Assembly (NCBI GenBank): GCA_030600725.1
Contig: JAUVLN010000001.1
Location: 1-29,797 of the forward strand
Length of the DNA stretch: 29,797 nucleotides
DNA from: Thermoplasmatota archaeon
GTDB taxonomy: Archaea; Thermoplasmatota; Penumbrarchaeia; Penumbrarchaeales; Penumbrarchaeaceae
Direction: 5' to 3'
Each line of letters opens with the position of its first letter. The stretch's first letter is position 1. Position numbers and translations under genes: made by a program. Of this stretch, positions 4,210 to 26,866 are shown piece after piece. The notes below the pieces were generated by a model. It saw only the letters and a list, made by a program, of their open reading frames with translations, had not been told where the DNA came from and did not search any database.

Positions 4210-4662
4210 TCAGGACCCCTCCTCCTGCTCTCTGCCAAGGCTTTCGATGTCAACGGTGAACACGTACCTGATGGGTTTCCTCTCCCATTTGCCCGTCCAG
4301 TACCTGCACATGCCGCACATCTTCCCCGTGTTCACGGTCCACCCGTAGAGCGTCGCGTTCTTGATCGATGACATCTTCCCGCCGCACACGGGACAGTTGC
4401 TCTTCCTGGAAGGGCGATCCAGATCCCTGCAGTGGGCGATGATGTCGACCCCCTCGGTGGAGGCGGCGATCCTTCTCAGTCGGCCCGCGGAGAGCTTGAA
4501 GTTGCCCCCGTACCTCTCCTTCAGTATGTTCCTCACAAGTCTGTGCAGCAGCGTCTGAGAACGGATGGTCCTGGCCTCCGAAAGGATCTCCAATATCATC
4601 TCGGATACCTGAGAACCATTGGGAATCCTGTAGCCCCCCTTGGCGGGGCTTGAGCCTTCCAT
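4210..4662 (-). CDS. Hypothetical protein with a C-terminal Zn ribbon
   Basis: 150 aa; CPVC...CGMC; coding-like composition; ends 2 nt before the TPR gene start (probable operon). Confidence 0.7.
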   Translation of the reverse strand: MEGSSPAKGGYRIPNGSQVSEMILEILSEARTIRSQTLLHRLVRNILKERYGGNFKLSAGRLRRIAASTEGVDIIAHCRDLDRPSRKSNCPVCGGKMSSIKNATLYGWTVNTGKMCGMCRYWTGKWERKPIRYVFTVDIESLGREQEEGS

Positions 4663-4749
4663 GGCAGCCCTATGGAGTTGAAATTAAAAAAAGCAATCGC
4701 ATGAATGCGGTGAAGTTCGGATGGGTTTTATTTTTTGGAGTTCGATCTA

Positions 4750-4757
4750 TGTATAAG
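4750..4757 (+). promoter_or_regulatory. Possible TATA box upstream of the repeat array
   Basis: TGTATAAG about 26 nt before the first array unit (4777), the usual archaeal TATA-to-TSS spacing. Confidence 0.35.
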
Positions 4758-4776
4758 TCCAAAATCGATGCTCATC

Positions 4777-5166
4777 CGTAAGTTTCTCACGTCGCTTATA
4801 AGTGATTCGAAACTTCGAAACCTAACCAACCAGATCGTCGCTTATACTAGCGGTTGGTTGGTTTTCTTTTAAGGTAACGAATGAAAACGTTGTCTTGAAC
4901 CTTGAAGAACTCGTAAGTTTCTCACGTCAATTACAAATGCCACGAAACTTCGAAACCTAACCAACCAGATCGTCGCTTATACTAGTGGTTGGTTGGTTTT
5001 CTTTTAAGGCAACGAATAAAAGCGTTGTCTTGAACCTTGAAGAACTCGTAAGTTTCTCACGTCGCTTATAAGTGATTCGAAACTTCGAGACTCACCCCAA
5101 CATATCGTCGCTTATACTAGCGTTGGGGGAGTTTTATTTTAAGGTAACGAATGAAAACGTTGTCTT
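4777..5166 (+). repeat. Tandem array of three 135-bp-period structured units (candidate ncRNA array)
   Basis: Units start at 4777, 4912 and 5047. Each has hairpin A, hairpin B, a T-tract and hairpin C. Compensatory substitutions occur in hairpin B. Confidence 0.95.
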
Positions 5167-5209
5167 AAAAGAAAAAGCGGACGGGGAAAGGGGAAATCAA
5201 ACCCCGTCC
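5167..5209 (-). terminator. GC-rich hairpin followed by a T-tract on the minus strand
   Basis: GGACGGGG (5179-5186) pairs with CCCCGTCC (5202-5209); the minus strand continues GCTTTTTCTTTT. Confidence 0.5.
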
Positions 5210-5264
5210 TTAGGTCGGGATGCATACGGGTAGCCCGGGCGGCTCCCCATGTACAATAAACAAG

Positions 5265-5274
5265 AAAAAAAAAA
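5265..5274 (-). terminator. Oligo-T terminator of rps17e
   Basis: T10 on the minus strand about 45 nt after the rps17e stop. Confidence 0.55.
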
Positions 5275-5320
5275 GGTATTAATACAGGGGCCAAGGGGTT
5301 AGGCGAAAGTACCTGTGGAA

Positions 5321-5518
5321 CTATATCTTCCTGGCCAGGACCTTCTGGTACCTGGTGATGTATCCGGCCACCCTGTTCCTTACCTTATGTGAGTGGAAAT
5401 CCGCCAGCTTCCCCGCGGATTCCTTGTTGTTCTGAAAGTCATTGTTGAAATGCTCCGGATACCTCTTGAGCAGTTCGATGGCGGACCTTTTTATGAATGT
5501 AGGCCTGATATTTCCCAT
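5321..5518 (-). CDS. rps17e: 30S ribosomal protein S17e (eS17)
   Basis: MGNIRPTFIKR...F..DF..NK...KVRNRVAGYITR; ATG at 5518 after SD AGGTGA. Confidence 0.97.
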   Translation of the reverse strand: MGNIRPTFIKRSAIELLKRYPEHFNNDFQNNKESAGKLADFHSHKVRNRVAGYITRYQKVLARKI

Positions 5519-5596
5519 TGACTTCACCTATTGCGAGGCGAGCGAGAGGAGTTCACGTATATATACGTTGTCCAGATAACGGACGGATGGTCCCGT

Positions 5597-8500
5597 CTAC
5601 TCCTCCAGAAGTTCCTCCAATTCCCCCTCCTCGAAGTCATCCAAAACCTCATCCTTCAAGCTTCCCCTGAAGTCAAGCGGATCGTAGAGGTACCCGCAGT
5701 CGTCGCACTCGTCGAGGCCGCCCCTGATCACGGATCCGCACTCGGGGCACGACCACACGTCGAGGTCCTTGTCGATCATCTCTATCTCCTCGGAGCCTTT
5801 CCTCGAGAGGACCAGGAAAACGACTACCGTGATGAAAAGAAGTAAGACCAGGCCGACGAGTATGATCAATCCCGTGCTTATCTCAGGGGGAGGCGGATCG
5901 GAACCGGGAACAACGGTGATGGTCATGGTGTGGTTCACCGTGACCGTCCCGTCCGATACCCGCAGGGTTACGATGTAAACCCCCGTGATCTTGTATGAAT
6001 ATGACGCCTTCTCCCCCACGTACTCCCTCTGGAGACCGTCCCTGTCGTCGAAATCCCAGATGAACGTAAGTTCATCACCGTCCGGGTCCACGGTCCCCGA
6101 GGCGTCAAAGAGGATCTCGCTCCCGACGATCACATTGGTCTCGGGACCTTTGACCGATATCACAGGTTCACTGTTCTCCACGATCAGGGAGAAATCCGCC
6201 GTTCTGGCTATGAAGTGGCCGTCATCCGCCTCGAAATAATATGTGTGGGAGCCCGGATCAAGGTCAACGGGGGACGATCCGTAGAAGCTGTACCTGATCG
6301 GATCGACGATGCCCTCGGAGGAGAGTCCTATGGGTTCACCCCCGTCGATGACAAGCCTCACCCATATCGGATCCTCCCCGTCCGCGTCCTTGTATTCCAC
6401 CCTGAATTCCATGCCCGCATTCGAATCCGCCTCCCTCACATCGCTTTCCGGCCTGTGCCTCAGGTTGGGGGCGTTGTTATCCATTATCCCCACCGCATAG
6501 TATCCGGCGGTCAATTCCGAGAAGTTCCCGTATCCGGCCTCCTCCACGAGGACCCCACCCGAAGCGGGCGGTGCATCCCAGATCCCATCATGATATCTGT
6601 ACACCTTGATCAGGTCCTCATGCATCCGTATGGGAAACTCCTTACCGGCATGCCCCATCGTTACGTTGATCCACTCGAATAGATAGGAGGCGTAGGTGGG
6701 AAGTGGTGTGAACTCCAGGTGGCATACAAATATCGCGCCGGGAGCTTCCGGGGGCATCTCGGGGATGGTAATATCCACCATGCCCCTGCCGTTGGGTTCC
6801 GATATCCCGAAGGACATCTTCACAATGATCCCATTGTAGAAGTCGGTGAACTCCTCGACTACCCTCTTGAGCAAAGTCACATTTACAGACGCCTCTCCGG
6901 ACGCCCTCATCTCATCGAATACGCGTAGGGTCAGCTTTTTCGTGCCCACTCCGTCAAGGGTCACCTCGGTTAACGCGTCCGGCCCTTCGTAGATCGGAGC
7001 CTCCTCCCCCTCGATATACCAGGAGTAGGTTAGATGGTCCCCGTCACCATCGTATGAGAGGGAGCCGTTCAGCGTTATAGTCTCCTCCGGGAAAGCCATC
7101 AGGGCTTCGCCGGGGGAGGAGATCACCGCAACGGGTGCGAGGTTCCTGTCGCCGATGGATAAAAGCGTACCCCCAGATAGGGAGATGATCATATGCTTCT
7201 TCGAAATGGACGGCTCTCCACGGGGACGGGCATCCAGGGGAAGGGTCCATCTCATCTCGTATCCCCCGCTTCCATCGGGCGAATATGAGGTGACGATCCA
7301 GGGGTCCGCCCCTACGATCGTGTAGAAGGAACTCCCCCCCGATATCGCCCTGGTGATCGGTTCAAGGGGCATAGAGATGTTGGATATTATGGTCCCATTG
7401 TTCAGGTACATGAACAATATCCTGCCATCCACCTGCATGGATATCACACTGGCGGCTTCGGAGACCGCTGGTGGGGCGATCATATCGTAGGGAAGGGGGG
7501 AGGTCCAGATCAGGTCCACGCCAGTGATATTGTCCGGTGCGCCCTCATCCGTATCCTCTGCGTCAACGATCCCATCCTCGTTATCGTCGGGGTTGGAATC
7601 CAGCACCGCAACCACCATGCTGCTCACTGCGATCAGTTTACCGTTAACATACGAAAGGGAGAGTATATCGTCGGAGAAGATGGCGGACAGTTCCATGGTA
7701 TGTATCAGTGATCCGTTGTTTGCATCGATGATCTTTATCATATCGTCATCTGCAATATATATCTCACCGAGTGAGGCTGCAATGGGGCAGTGCTCCGTGC
7801 CCACCGCCACCTTCCACCTGGCCATTCCGTCATCGTCATCGTAAGCGGTCATATTTCCATCCGAGGTGATGACTATCACATTTCCTCCAGCGATCATTAT
7901 AGGGGCCGCTGCAGGGGCGGGAAGGGGTTTCCTCCAGAGGACATCGCCCGCGCTCATCCGGGTGTCCTCCTCCTCCTGATACGCCCCGTCGTTCACACCG
8001 TCCCGGAAACCTATCCAATCAAAGGCCCAGAGCGCCTGATCGTCGCCTATTGCGAACACCTTGTTCGCGAATGCCCAGGACTGCTCGTTCTCCATATGCA
8101 GCGCGGGCCTTCCGATTAGATTGGATGATGCGTTGGTGTAGGTCCAGAGCCTGCCTGTCCCACCGTTATCATCCGTCGATGTGTTCAGGGCCGTGAGGTC
8201 GCCCTGCGGCGTAGTAAAGAATAGGGCCGAACCCACGGCGGATGATGTTCCGGAACCCGCCAGGGAATCAAGCCACAAGGGCTCAACGGGATCGCTCCAC
8301 TCCCCCTCGAGGTCGTAGGACCAGTATGTCCGATTGCTCTGAAGCTCCCCCTGCGACCAACCTGTCCGTCCGGGCCCGCCCCCGGCGGATGTCCAGAAGC
8401 CCGTCAGTATCGGCCTGACGTAGATCTCGATGCTGTCTATATTGTCCTCTGTCGGCGTCACCTTATCCTTGGGTGCTGCCTCTATGATCCGCCCCACTAT

Positions 8501-10102
8501 CAGGGGATATCCGGCCTCTGCGACCCAGTCCTGTGAGACGATCACATCCTCCCCAGGTTCGACCCTGAGGTCGGATACCTTGCCGACGGCCTTCTGATTC
8601 AGGAAATCCTGCGTCGAGATGCGGAACTCCACGGAGACCGTGGCACCGACCGTCCCATTGTTCAGCACATTCAGGCTGATCCGAACGTTCTCACCCTCGA
8701 AGGGAGCGGGATCGTTGAGTTCTATGGAATGGACCCTTAGATCGGGCGATCCTATTGCGATGACCTTTCCGTCGTTCATAAGGTTCTTCCTTGAGATGAA
8801 TACCCGCCCCATCCCGACGGCCAGTGTGGAGTCGATCTTCGACCCGATGTTCCTCTTCCAGATGATCCGGTCCTCGTCCGCGATGTTCAGGGTTGTGGTG
8901 GATATGCAGTAAACCTTGTGCTCCCTGTTGCCAAAGAGCAGAACACCGTCGCCGATGATGGGCGATGAGCCGGATAGCTCCCCCGTCGTGTTGAACCTCC
9001 AGAGGAGTGAGCCGTCCGCTGAGTCAAGGGCATATGCGGATCCCCCGACGTATTCGTTGTACTGGCCCCAAGCCCTCTTCGTTGTCAGGTATATCGTGCC
9101 ATCGTGATAGGACGGGCACGAGGATATCTTGGGTGGGGCACCGGACCCCACATCCACAGACCATACGTCCGCTCCTGTCAGGGCGTCGAGGCAGAAGAGC
9201 GTCCCGGTCGCGTTTCCGTAGAAAACGTTGCCCTCGGCAAGGAGGGAGTGACCCTGTATCGTCGTTCCGGGGTCCTCCTTCATCCAGAGGATATCCGTAT
9301 TACCTATGGATTTGTTGGCCTCCCCGGCATAACCCTGGTCCCCGTCGAAGAAACCGTCGCTGTCCAGGCAGTAGAATGTCCCCCACCCGTCTGCGACGTA
9401 TAGCCTCCCGTCGTGGAACGCTGGATTCATCTGGAAACCCCAGAAGTTCTCCTGACCCCCCATGATGAGGGTCCAGTTCACGGAGCCGTTGTTGGCGTTC
9501 AATGCGTAGAAAGTGCTGTTGATCAGGTTTGATGTCCCCACGAAAACCTTCCCGTCGGCCACCATCGGCGTGGAGCGGATCGAATCCGCGTGAAGATTCG
9601 CATCCCAGAGCCTCGTGTTCGTGTCGATGTCGACGGCGTAGAAGTGGCCGTTGTCCGCACCGAAGTAGATCACTCCGTCCCTGGCCGTTCCTCCAACAGA
9701 TATATGGTAATTGCCAATGTAATGGTCCCAGACCACCTCCCCGTTATCCGGATCCAGCCCCCTCATGTGGCCGTCGCCCGATCCGATGAAAACCATCGAA
9801 TCGTACAGGATGGGAGAATCGAACTCCTTCAGTCCAGGAATATCGGTGGTCCACAGGGTGGTATTGTCCGAGGGGATCAGCGAGGGAGTATAACCCGTGT
9901 GGTTCTCATCGCCCATGTACATTGGCCATGAATCTCCGTCCTGGGACGCCTCCCTTGTCGGAGCGGAGAACCGGGTGATTTCGATATCGCCCTCGATACC
10001 GGAGGCCGCGGAGGGCGTGAAAATCACCATTGACGAGGCCAGCATCATGAGAACGGCCAGCGTTGAGATATATCTGATTATAACCTTTCTGTTCACGATC
10101 AT
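5597..10102 (-). CDS. Large membrane-anchored surface protein with PQQ-like beta-propeller repeats, CARDB/PKD Ig-like domains, C-terminal TM helix, Zn ribbon and acidic tail
   Basis: Signal peptide (RKVIIRYISTLAVLMMLASSMV); WPMYMGDENHTG and repeated ALDA..G..LW..G..SSP propeller blades; PKD motifs (LNGSLSYDGDGDHLTYSW, FDASGTVDPDGDELTFIWDFDD); TM helix; CPEC..CDDC. Start is ATG 10102 or GTG 10096 after GGAGTG. Confidence 0.85.
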   Translation of the reverse strand: MIVNRKVIIRYISTLAVLMMLASSMVIFTPSAASGIEGDIEITRFSAPTREASQDGDSWPMYMGDENHTGYTPSLIPSDNTTLWTTDIPGLKEFDSPILYDSMVFIGSGDGHMRGLDPDNGEVVWDHYIGNYHISVGGTARDGVIYFGADNGHFYAVDIDTNTRLWDANLHADSIRSTPMVADGKVFVGTSNLINSTFYALNANNGSVNWTLIMGGQENFWGFQMNPAFHDGRLYVADGWGTFYCLDSDGFFDGDQGYAGEANKSIGNTDILWMKEDPGTTIQGHSLLAEGNVFYGNATGTLFCLDALTGADVWSVDVGSGAPPKISSCPSYHDGTIYLTTKRAWGQYNEYVGGSAYALDSADGSLLWRFNTTGELSGSSPIIGDGVLLFGNREHKVYCISTTTLNIADEDRIIWKRNIGSKIDSTLAVGMGRVFISRKNLMNDGKVIAIGSPDLRVHSIELNDPAPFEGENVRISLNVLNNGTVGATVSVEFRISTQDFLNQKAVGKVSDLRVEPGEDVIVSQDWVAEAGYPLIVGRIIEAAPKDKVTPTEDNIDSIEIYVRPILTGFWTSAGGGPGRTGWSQGELQSNRTYWSYDLEGEWSDPVEPLWLDSLAGSGTSSAVGSALFFTTPQGDLTALNTSTDDNGGTGRLWTYTNASSNLIGRPALHMENEQSWAFANKVFAIGDDQALWAFDWIGFRDGVNDGAYQEEEDTRMSAGDVLWRKPLPAPAAAPIMIAGGNVIVITSDGNMTAYDDDDGMARWKVAVGTEHCPIAASLGEIYIADDDMIKIIDANNGSLIHTMELSAIFSDDILSLSYVNGKLIAVSSMVVAVLDSNPDDNEDGIVDAEDTDEGAPDNITGVDLIWTSPLPYDMIAPPAVSEAASVISMQVDGRILFMYLNNGTIISNISMPLEPITRAISGGSSFYTIVGADPWIVTSYSPDGSGGYEMRWTLPLDARPRGEPSISKKHMIISLSGGTLLSIGDRNLAPVAVISSPGEALMAFPEETITLNGSLSYDGDGDHLTYSWYIEGEEAPIYEGPDALTEVTLDGVGTKKLTLRVFDEMRASGEASVNVTLLKRVVEEFTDFYNGIIVKMSFGISEPNGRGMVDITIPEMPPEAPGAIFVCHLEFTPLPTYASYLFEWINVTMGHAGKEFPIRMHEDLIKVYRYHDGIWDAPPASGGVLVEEAGYGNFSELTAGYYAVGIMDNNAPNLRHRPESDVREADSNAGMEFRVEYKDADGEDPIWVRLVIDGGEPIGLSSEGIVDPIRYSFYGSSPVDLDPGSHTYYFEADDGHFIARTADFSLIVENSEPVISVKGPETNVIVGSEILFDASGTVDPDGDELTFIWDFDDRDGLQREYVGEKASYSYKITGVYIVTLRVSDGTVTVNHTMTITVVPGSDPPPPEISTGLIILVGLVLLLFITVVVFLVLSRKGSEEIEMIDKDLDVWSCPECGSVIRGGLDECDDCGYLYDPLDFRGSLKDEVLDDFEEGELEELLEE

Positions 10103-10187
10103 CACTCCACGATATAGGGTGATTAGCAACAAAATTCTATTTATATAAACGTTGTGTAAAGTCATTCGTTCATGCACATGGGATGAT

Positions 10188-11420
10188 TCATATCTCGTAC
10201 GTATCATCCGTTGTCGGGACCAGGACCTCTGTGAACGTCGAGATGGCGTCTGCAAGCGGCGTTCTATCGTCCCCGTGTATCAGGATAACTTTCTCCGCAC
10301 CCGTTTCCTGGGCGAACTGGGTGAGCTGTTGGTGCCCCGCGTGTGCGGAGAAATCAAAATGGACCACCTCGCAGTCCACTTTCTCGACAACCCCTGCGAT
10401 CTCGATGGAACCCGTCTCCATCAGCATCCTTCCGTTGGTGTCATCCACCTGATATCCCGTGAGGAGGATGCCGCTTCTCGGATCCTTCCTCCTGTTTCCG
10501 ATGTAATCAAGTACGGGCCCACCGTCCAGCATGCCCGATGTTGTTACGACTATCGGGGCCTCCCTGGCCTTTATCCTGTGTCCCGGGTTCTTGACGAACT
10601 TTATCGATCTCAGGGCGTGGATAAGGGATTTGGGGTCCCTCAGGAATCCGGGGTTCTCGAGGTAGAGTTTCGAAACCCTTGTCCCCATTCCGTGGAGCCA
10701 CTTCTCCTTCCGCAGGGGTGAGATGATCTGTATCACCTCCTGGGTCCTTCCGACGGCGAAGGCGGGGATGATCACCTTGCCTCCCCTTTCAAGGATCTCC
10801 TCTATCTTTCTCAGGAAGTCGTATTCCACCTTCTCCCTGTCGGGATGGGGGCGCCCGGAGTAGGTCGACTCCATTATCAGGACGTCGCATTCCGGGGCCG
10901 TTGCCCCGGTCTGGAGCCTCGTATCGACCGTGTTGATGTCCCCGGTGAACAGAACATCCTTTCCGGACCCATCGTTGAACATGTACATCGTGGACCCGGG
11001 GATGTGGCCGGCATCGTATGCCGTGACCGAGAATGGGCCTACTCGTATTGTCTGCCCGTATTCGATGTAGTTGAACGAGTCCTTGAACCTTCTCACGTCG
11101 AACTGATCGTACGGAAGGGTGTAGCCCTCGATCTTGGCGATCTTGATAGTGTCCATCAGGAGGATCAATGCGGTCTCGAGCGTTAGCCGTGTCCCGTACA
11201 CCCTCGCCCCGTATTCGCCGCAGACCCATGGGGCCATCCCGATGTGATCGAGGTGGGAATGGGTAAGGAAAAGGGCATCCGAGGGTTTCACCTTTCTCGG
11301 GAACTTCGGTGGCTTGGATGGGGTGAGGCCGTAGTCGAAAAGAATCCTCGTCTCCTTCGATTCGGCGGTTATACCAAGGCTGCCTATCTCCTCCACTCCT
11401 CCCGAGAAACCAATGATCAT
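10188..11420 (-). CDS. Metallo-beta-lactamase / beta-CASP ribonuclease (archaeal aCPSF2-like)
   Basis: [50 protein letters not shown] and IHGD motifs; no N-terminal KH domains. Confidence 0.9.
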
Positions 11421-25561: not shown

Positions 25562-26866
25562 CTATAACCTGTTGCCAAAGTAAGGGCCACTTTGATCGAT
25601 GGTACCAACCTCCGGCAGGGATGACGGTTTGAAAAGATGCCTCCAGGCATCCTCCGGAGGCTCCATCATGCCCTTTTGTATGGACCTCATAACTGTGATC
25701 TCCAACTTTTTCAGGGAAGGGTCCACATGTCTACACCCCTTGCACCTGAGCGGCTGTCCCTTTCCCATGGATCCCATCTTCGCACCACACCTGGGGCAGG
25801 GGGGATTTGTGATCTCTACCTTCCGTGCCGGCGAGAGGACCTCCACCTTCTCCAGGTTCACGACCCTTGGATTGTCATTATCCGCGGAACGGACCCCCCC
25901 AAATATTCGAATTGCATCCCCGACGATGAGCTCGGACAGCTCCTTCCTGAAGCCTTTTGTGGGCTCGTAGGCGCCGCATCTGATCGAATCGCCCCTGTCG
26001 TCATCCACCTCGAAGAAGAGATGGCTCCCCCTCTCATATCTCGGTGGCGATGATACCATAGCGACCATTCTGATCGAGGAATGATCCCTGATCGACCGGA
26101 TGTCCCTGGTTTCCTCGATGTGGGCGTCCGTGTGCTGGTTGGTGGCCCACAGTACCCATCTCTCGATTCCCTCCGTGTCTATATTTGAGGCCATGGCCAG
26201 GGCATCCTTTGGGTCCATCCCCCTGATACCGAACAGGACCGGGCATGGGGACCTCGGGATGCAGAGGACCTTTCCATCCCTCGATACGTTGAAGAAGGTG
26301 GAGGGGTGCTCCAGGGCCGCTTTTATTATGCTTGCTTCATCTACCACCTTGGGCCCCTTGTCCTCACCCGACCGGTAGACGACCACCTCATTGGTGATAT
26401 CGGTCAATTCAGCACCAACAGCCGCCAGTGCGCCGATCAATCCCCGCCGGTTCTTCCACCCCCTGAAGAGCGCATTGCTGTTGCTTGCAAGGCGGACGGC
26501 TTCTTGAGTGTCCAGTACCTCGTGGAGCGCCCTGTGATAGAACCCATTTACAGCGTTAGGTACATCTCCCTCCAGCACGACCAAACCCGGATTGGTCTGG
26601 GGGTCCTCGAAGACAGAGAGCTCTTTGACGGCCTGCTCGGATATCCTGAAGATCTCTTCCCTGATACCTTCCTCCCCCTCGAGCCTGAGGCATACCGCCC
26701 CGTTCCCCCTCGTCTTCCAGGGGATGTTGGGATTGAGCCTGATCAGCTCCGGATGGGAGGCGGCTTTCAGTTTCAGGCGTTCCAGCAGGACGGCTCCCAG
26801 GTAGGTCGTACACATGCCCAGCGTGGCGGAGTCCGTGCAGTCGATACCCACATGATAGCGGGTCAC
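25562..26866 (-). CDS. tiaS: tRNA(Ile2) 2-agmatinylcytidine synthetase TiaS
   Basis: VGIDCTDS..GMCTTY, RLNPNIPWKTRGNGA, GLIGALAAVG, PCPVLFGIRG, TNQHTDAH, AYEPTK.FR and C-terminal CPRC..C. GTG 26866 overlaps the dys stop (GTGA). Confidence 0.93.
   Translation of the reverse strand: MTRYHVGIDCTDSATLGMCTTYLGAVLLERLKLKAASHPELIRLNPNIPWKTRGNGAVCLRLEGEEGIREEIFRISEQAVKELSVFEDPQTNPGLVVLEGDVPNAVNGFYHRALHEVLDTQEAVRLASNSNALFRGWKNRRGLIGALAAVGAELTDITNEVVVYRSGEDKGPKVVDEASIIKAALEHPSTFFNVSRDGKVLCIPRSPCPVLFGIRGMDPKDALAMASNIDTEGIERWVLWATNQHTDAHIEETRDIRSIRDHSSIRMVAMVSSPPRYERGSHLFFEVDDDRGDSIRCGAYEPTKGFRKELSELIVGDAIRIFGGVRSADNDNPRVVNLEKVEVLSPARKVEITNPPCPRCGAKMGSMGKGQPLRCKGCRHVDPSLKKLEITVMRSIQKGMMEPPEDAWRHLFKPSSLPEVGTIDQSGPYFGNRL

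Follow-up and report, generated by a model that had tools for sequence, protein, structure and literature searches.

Small structured repeats between genes are well known from bacteria, but descriptions in archaea are poor and those in uncultured Thermoplasmata almost lacking. Pneumococcal BOX elements are built of boxA and boxC modules around a tandem array of boxB, form stem-loops, and are over-represented between convergent genes (PMC3049150). The repeats that we describe here resemble BOX and the terminator-like SPRITE in their composite modules, variable tandem inner module, stem-loops, dispersed intergenic positions and excess between convergent genes, and the size of BOX (∼70–640 bp) is a further likeness (PMC3049150). 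The REP/BIME (REPIN) elements of Proteobacteria are short intergenic palindromes that occur in mosaics, in both orientations and at gene 3′ ends, and these traits are shared by the present repeats, as are compensatory changes that keep the structure and a role as insertion targets of the IS110 family (PMC11208160). Like the MITEs of archaea and bacteria, the repeats are small, non-coding and dispersed, are present or absent at orthologous sites, and break assemblies. The protein-sequestering CsrB/RsmZ RNAs share with them a variable number of hairpins and one short loop motif.

The locus lies in the DNA of an uncultured Thermoplasmata archaeon, in a stretch of 29,797 nucleotides that was analysed as a whole (the window). 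A 658-bp gap flanked by two minus-strand genes contains an array of three units. An initial sequence-only reading had proposed an exact 135-bp period, and TRF indeed returned, at positions 4777–5166, a period of 135 with 2.9 copies, 86% matches and 0 indels, while all three 135-base units could be aligned without gaps. Each unit folds on the plus strand into the hairpins A, B and C that had been claimed, with minimum free energies of −32.5 to −36.7 kcal/mol (z of −3.4 to −4.1); folded on the minus strand, the same units reach −28 to −29.6 kcal/mol. Unit 1 (4777..4911, plus strand), defined by TRF, alignment and folding, comprises hairpin A (4777–4817), hairpin B (4819–4863), a T-rich linker (4864–4870), hairpin C (4871–4896) and a spacer (4897–4911). 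It was matched at 4776–4863 with 86 bits by R1, a covariance model of hairpins A and B with 89 positions. Unit 2 (4912..5046, plus strand), defined by alignment and folding, gave the top R1 match of the genome (91.9 bits) and contains A at 4912–4952, B at 4954–4998, C at 5006–5031 and a spacer at 5032–5046. Unit 3 (5047..5166, plus strand), defined by alignment, folding and an R1 match, is without the spacer, and is made up of A (5047–5087), B with a re-written stem (5089–5133) and C (5141–5166). The 11-mer CGTCGCTTATA occurs five times within the array on the plus strand (4790–4800, 4836–4846, 4971–4981, 5060–5070 and 5106–5116), against 0.17 copies expected by chance.

The unit alignment was used to re-derive the four double compensatory changes by which hairpin B differs between unit 1 and unit 3. 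These are C-G to A-T at 4830/4853, A-T to C-G at 4828/4855, A-T to C-G at 4825/4858 and C-G to T-A at 4822/4860, and the alignment also showed the claimed shift of the B bulge by one position and the single base difference in the B loop. The units differ mainly in two places, the A loop of unit 2 and the stem of hairpin B in unit 3, and are otherwise nearly identical. The A loop of unit 2 carries the consensus of the wider repeat family described below, CGTCAATT, at 4925–4932, and units 1 and 3 have CGTCGCTT instead. Judged by this consensus, therefore, it is units 1 and 3 that deviate, and the loop of unit 2 is not a hypervariable one. Each B hairpin of the window is followed by TTTTCTTTT, and a T-run on the minus strand precedes the array. 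Contigs from independent DNA runs (cold seep and marine sediment) contained all parts of the array at 100% identity, but broke inside the repeat. This indicates that the sequence is real, and that the count of three units depends on the assembly of the MAG.

The two flanking genes encode a DUF5679-like zinc-ribbon protein of 150 aa (4210..4662, minus strand), the promoter region of which faces the array, and ribosomal protein S17e (rpS17e; 5321..5527, minus strand; PF00833, 4e-12). Comparison of syntenic loci showed that the non-repeat DNA at 4700..4776 is extra, together with the array, in this genus relative to the empty site elsewhere. A TATA-like sequence, TATGTATAAG, lies within it at 4749–4758. 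Directly downstream of rpS17e, and abutting the array, family alignment and folding revealed a small-RNA-like element of two hairpins ending in a T-run (5167..5262, minus strand; ∼85–95 nt). This element is ∼80% identical across the family, is found in all genera whether or not an array is present, and is separate from the repeat. A G-U pair is kept on its minus strand, a TATA-like box lies upstream in relatives, and Rfam gave no match for it. The element looks like an unannotated small RNA gene or a structured 3′ end of the rpS17e transcript. Elsewhere in the window, a 425-aa AAA_21 (AbiEii-like, SMC_N-related) ATPase is encoded at 1236–2513 on the minus strand, 2.3 kb from the array; this family is common in defence systems, and no link of the gene to the repeat was seen. 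A 1552-aa PQQ beta-propeller/PKD surface protein is encoded at 5597–10255 on the minus strand, and many arrays in relatives are flanked by very large secreted proteins of the PQQ/PKD kind.

The array had been regarded as an orphan, a description that did not hold. In a BLAST search against relatives, seven genomes of this family gave short matches to hairpin A. When read, these loci proved to have the same hairpins, with stems that differ in sequence and with CGTC(A/G)ATT as the loop motif. The model R1 was kept to hairpins A and B, and a further model extended to the complete stems of B and C was dropped, because MAFFT had put the upper stem of B out of register; the full B and C stems were assessed by folding of each copy. 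Apart from the three array units, R1 found two weaker loci in this genome (C188:26010-26100 and C155:3919-4004), and well over 200 matches across related genomes. Copies are present in 21 of the 24 genomes of the family, with 1–7 copies in most genera and 15–53 in one genus. Beyond the family, a scan of the class and a sample of 151 genomes of the phylum produced matches in one genome of a second family only (G028, up to 17), and 135 other genomes of the phylum had none. Many matches are a few hundred bases or less from the end of a contig, and in all three assemblies of the same genus the contigs with the window locus end at the array or within ∼50 bp of it. The C188 locus is a second, diverged array (B-C-A-B-C; ∼25900–26200 of G000:C188, L015:1395–1640), which lies antisense to the 5S rRNA gene of a 23S-5S operon, ∼55 nt past the 3′ end of that gene. 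Copies directly after the 5S rRNA gene were seen in two genera, that of G009 (L025) being in the same position as the C188 array. A match to a known Rfam family or MITE had been named beforehand as evidence against the original reading. A scan of the window at the Rfam gathering threshold gave no match, the region 4600–5400 produced chance-level scores only (E of 0.58–7.9), six homologous loci gave only rRNA, 5S and tRNA matches beside the element, and a tRNA scan returned nothing. What was found instead is a MITE-like dispersed repeat outside the known families.

Full elements at other loci have the form L-(A-B-C)n. L is a leader of ∼60 nt, highly conserved across genera, whose outer stem pairs an A-run and CCC with GGG and a T-run around an inner hairpin. 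This outer stem covaries (CCC/GGG, ACC/GGT, CCTT/AAGG, CTC/GAG and TCCTA/TAGGA), and encloses a small hairpin that also covaries, as well as the block CACAACATAG-N-ATGA(A/G)(A/G)AT. In a scan of 60 loci with 15 L matches, L lay directly 5′ of A in every match that was followed by an A module, and a T6 run separates the two in full elements. Because its hairpin is flanked by T-runs on both strands, L would have the shape of a two-way terminator. Hairpin A has 10 bp with a bulged T after the third pair, and its loop starts with CT-NN-CGTC(A/G)(A/C)TT. Hairpin B consists of a short lower stem, a bulged A or T, an upper stem of 7–10 bp and a loop with (A/G)A(T/C)CGTC, and hairpin C is AT-rich with arms that often contain T- and A-runs. 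The loop motif claimed to be common to A and B proved to be a conserved feature of both, with CGTC as the invariant core in the consensus of 121 copies and in the second-family copies. Units measure ∼135–210 nt, contain three or four different hairpins, and occur singly or in tandems of 2–5, with or without L. Modules are found in both orientations and units are sometimes head to head (the G002 syntenic locus and G020:C14). A simpler form consists of L and one long hairpin. The array of the window has no L, and its C is unlike the common type.

We then asked how far pairing in the stems is conserved across these copies. The claim of selection for stem pairing was strengthened by the addition of homologues, with which covariation became very strong. 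In the stems of 121 distinct copies, standard pairs make up 97.3% of cells, compared to 77.3% in column shuffles, and only 19–47% are paired when the partner is slid by 1–3 columns; the alignment was fitted to the model, which favours pairing, and the margin is very large. Fourteen of the 15 pairs change on both sides (336 cells), several of them with four pair types. On these copies, the modules are shown to be nearly perfect Watson-Crick inverted repeats that are kept while the sequence of the stems drifts. The extrahelical base and the foot of the stem are conserved, and the upper stems vary. In the second-family copies, the bulged U and the CGUC loops are kept on re-written stems, including the A foot that is otherwise constant. 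In the richest genome, the median identity between copies is 62% and folding is retained, and B hairpins had a mean z of −2.9 across 58 units from the collected copies, about half of them from this genome. A few pairs of copies on different contigs of the same genome are 98–99% identical, so that duplication to new places is still ongoing.

The genes next to the window locus are syntenic across the family, which allowed a comparison of occupied and empty sites. From the start of the DUF5679-like gene to the conserved small element, the distance is ∼60–230 nt with no repeat unit in five other genera (G013, G015, G009, G021 and G006), and ∼500 nt with the array. At the TBP locus, a 200-bp L-A-B-C element lies upstream of the gene in two species (G010 and G020). 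The gap is shorter by ∼165–230 nt, the size of the element, in G005 and G018 of the same genus and in other genera. The TBP intergenic sequences of G005 and G018, as read, contained no element, and one of these two TBP-empty species is the 53-copy carrier. Presence/absence polymorphism at orthologous sites, as known for MITEs, was therefore found at both the window locus and the TBP locus. Within the genus of the window, G002:C541 (L003/L050), syntenic with 4210–4800 of the window, carries C, B and A inverted and then direct modules, and the locus is therefore rearranging within the genus. Comparison of loci shows that units multiply and vanish at a given site. Genes flanking full elements vary by genus and include an M29 peptidase, a NosD-like protein, the PolD large subunit, TBP and others. 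Copies are intergenic, and most of them are found at the 3′ ends of genes. Neighbours could be called for 68 arrays, of which 27 lie between convergent, 30 between tandem and 11 between divergent genes, against a rough expectation of 17, 34 and 17. Read from A to C, 22 of the 30 arrays in tandem contexts run antisense to the genes and 8 run sense; these counts are trends, as they derive from crude ORF calls and related copies. The left end of the element (an A-run and CCCTCATGAG) is not the inverse of its right end (CTTCATAC and AAA), so that terminal inverted repeats were not seen, and no target-site duplication or insertion boundary was definable at the empty sites, which are too diverged.

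Matches to A and B are scattered across one family, and the repeat is therefore a counterpart of REP or BOX, rather than a unique RNA gene. We propose, with moderate confidence, that it represents a new lineage-restricted family of dispersed, modular and insertion-polymorphic hairpin repeats, REP/BIME- or BOX-like, and that the array of the window arose by local three-fold tandem duplication of the A-B-C unit of this family. The hairpins may function when a single strand folds, probably within transcripts that read through them on either strand, and would there terminate RNA or shield its 3′ ends. A putative protein may contact them at the bulged base and at the CGTC loops, and the repeats would persist and spread as semi-selfish DNA, as do REP/BIME or pneumococcal BOX. 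Of the earlier proposal of a tandem family of selected structured RNAs, the selected pairing stands; a unique RNA family, a transcript and a general preference for the plus strand are not supported. A plain role as terminator or stabiliser leaves the conservation of the loop motif and of the bulged base without explanation, which counts against our own reading. So do the lack of L in the window array, its position after a minus-strand T-run, its few wobbles in favour of the plus strand, the three small metatranscriptomes, in which no transcript of the array was seen, and the searches for a mobilising enzyme, which found none.

The likeness to described repeats is also incomplete. Unlike BOX and SPRITE, to which it shows no sequence relation, the repeat has an archaeal host and no terminal inverted repeats were seen, and here the CGTC loops and bulged base are the most conserved parts while the stems covary strongly. 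Compared to REP/BIME, it shows the dispersed intergenic short palindromes in mosaics, but REPs, which rely on RAYT (Y1) transposases, have a GTAG foot and a length of 20–40 nt, whereas units here are ∼135–210 nt in genomes in which no Y1 transposase was found, and copy numbers are mostly low. In contrast to MITEs, the ends are not inverted repeats, no target-site duplication was defined, no parent IS was found, and copies within a genome are diverged (median identity of 62%) and not near-identical.

A doubtful alternative is that the array is a trans-acting plus-strand non-coding RNA of several hairpins, whose CGUC loops, several in each unit or in L-A-B-C as a whole, would titrate or scaffold a protein, in the manner of CsrB/RsmZ, or pair with targets. 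One conserved loop motif on repeated hairpins, with a unit number that varies by locus, would suit such an RNA. So would the AT-rich TATA-like sequence upstream of L and unit 1, the TTTTCTTTT after each B hairpin of the window, which has the shape of a small-RNA gene end, and the mostly antisense arrays in tandem contexts, which fit an independent transcription unit. The wobbles of the window also favour the plus strand, and it had been argued that this is the folded strand because all wobbles are G-T. This holds within the window (five G-T, one A-C) but not across the family, where G-T and A-C number 25 and 23, respectively. The stems defined by the model contained 1726 Watson-Crick pairs and 25 other mismatches besides these. 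In a wider, strand-symmetric count of single mismatches between flanking Watson-Crick pairs over A, B and C, A-C (80) exceeded G-T (48). The family average fold is slightly better on the minus strand (−40.4 kcal/mol) than on the plus strand (−37.7 kcal/mol), so the few wobbles of the window array go against a weak trend of the family. Single-stranded RNA structures normally tolerate G-U far better than A-C. Here neither is tolerated, a pattern compatible with function on both strands or at the level of DNA.

Further observations speak against a trans-acting RNA. The T6 run between L and A should stop plus-strand transcription ahead of A, and the copies are non-syntenic, number between 0 and 53 in a genome and are missing from orthologous sites, unlike CsrB/RsmZ with one conserved gene per genome. 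Archaea are not known to have a CsrA-like partner. Three small metatranscriptomes of the same study, two of them from array-bearing samples, contained no transcript of the array, which is a weak negative; a same-sample RNA run placed on the window gave a contig over rpS17e only (5364–5522). The 11-mer has no complementary target, its complement being absent elsewhere in the genome. Its sole other genomic copy is same-sense and lies inside a RadA-like coding region, and antisense targeting by the 11-mer was rejected. The sequence CGUCAAUU would be complementary to the universal 16S ‘915’ region, but the flanking loop bases vary and this assembly has no 16S gene, and pairing with it was set aside. 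As read, the units contained neither C/D boxes (RUGAUGA, CUGA) nor the ACA box that an H/ACA RNA would combine with a pseudouridylation pocket and K-turn, and they had no Rfam match, which argues against C/D-box or H/ACA guide RNAs. The boxes required for K-turn or hammerhead-like readings of the loops are likewise absent. A type III toxin-antitoxin RNA (ToxI-like) was dismissed given the 135-nt units, the lack of a downstream plus-strand gene and two flanking genes on the minus strand.

It is similarly improbable that the hairpins fold as single-stranded DNA and serve as recombinase or transposase sites, following the logic of REP-RAYT, attC-IntI or IS110 bridge RNA, with the bulged T and CGTC as contacts. 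Stems that are almost purely Watson-Crick, without strand-specific wobble, would be expected of such sites, and the conserved extrahelical base and stem foot below variable upper stems, both orientations of modules (as in the G002 syntenic locus) and the polymorphic presence between species are in keeping with them. The enzymes are the difficulty. A search for the Y1 (IS200-like, RAYT) transposase PF01797 found none in the 24 genomes of the family or in G028, though the same domain was detected in the control genomes and in six further genomes of the class. No integrase was found beside the arrays, no gene recurred beside the 20 arrays of the richest genome (G005), and copies within a genome are old and diverged, unlike a recent burst.

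IS110-family transposases are present in 10 of the 24 genomes of the family. This genome has one on a short contig (G000:C27:690-1172), and no repeat module lies within 1.5 kb of it. Among 15 IS110 loci, a single one has an A+B module at this distance or closer, and the non-coding left end of that IS did not match R1. Two IS110 elements of one subfamily, from two genera, are nevertheless located exactly at the apex of an L-type long hairpin, the arms of which flank the IS (L074, G016:C108, and L075, G004:C22), and these favour single-stranded DNA sites. In the non-coding left ends of the two elements (∼190 nt) there is a long-range stem, GATGGCAAAGGA ... TCCTTTGCCATC, together with a block, ACAACATAG, that L carries too. 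IS110 elements are without terminal repeats and insert into repetitive palindromes such as REPs (PMC11208160). Because of the position at the apex and these known REP-like targets, the two cases are read as IS110 targeting the L-type hairpins of the repeat family. With n=2, L and the 3′ arm of C might also be the ends of that IS110 subfamily. An identity of the array itself with an IS110 bridge RNA or seekRNA was a lead from one locus and was rejected, since 14 of the 15 IS110 loci have no modules and the IS has a non-coding end of its own.

The conservation of the bulge and the CGTC loops implies a specific partner. That the bulged U/T of the A foot and the CGUC loops dock a putative hairpin-specific protein, either a Y1-free recombinase or an RNA-binding regulator, is a tentative proposal that we consider unlikely in its specific form. 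If correct in the form of a recombinase, the system would be an archaeal one of the REP/RAYT or attC/IntI type; in the form of a regulator, L-(A-B-C)n transcripts would be multi-site platforms.

The least tenable reading is a guide RNA array of the TIGR, CRISPR or bridge-RNA kind, with the A loop (unit 2) and the B stem (unit 3) as the variable parts that would programme a trans-encoded enzyme. The differences between units are concentrated there and an IS110 recombinase gene exists elsewhere in the genome (C27), but the ‘variable’ loop of unit 2 is the family consensus, the variable part of B is a duplex and not a loop, no cas, Tas, integrase or recombinase gene was found beside the window array, and the loop variants are related by descent, have no complementary targets in the genome and are not guide-like, so that we regard this reading, which the original account had entertained, as highly improbable. 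A bridge RNA has two internal loops whose guides pair with target and donor DNA; hairpins A and B have one large loop each, both with the same conserved motif. The variable parts also showed no excess complementarity to their own B or C, and a kissing-loop of the variable A loop with these was rejected (own versus foreign, 5.6 versus 5.7 and 5.0 versus 5.2).

A REP/BIME- or BOX-like repeat family, as we favour, has practical consequences for work on these archaea. The repeat accounts for many contig breaks in their MAGs, and a covariance model of it could be used by annotators to mask copies or as a marker of the lineage. The family combines unusually clean covariation, over more than 120 copies, with conservation of loop and bulge that points to a specific partner, and no recognisable mobilising enzyme accompanies it. 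If a partner protein exists, the repeat would be a route to a new archaeal system that recognises hairpins.
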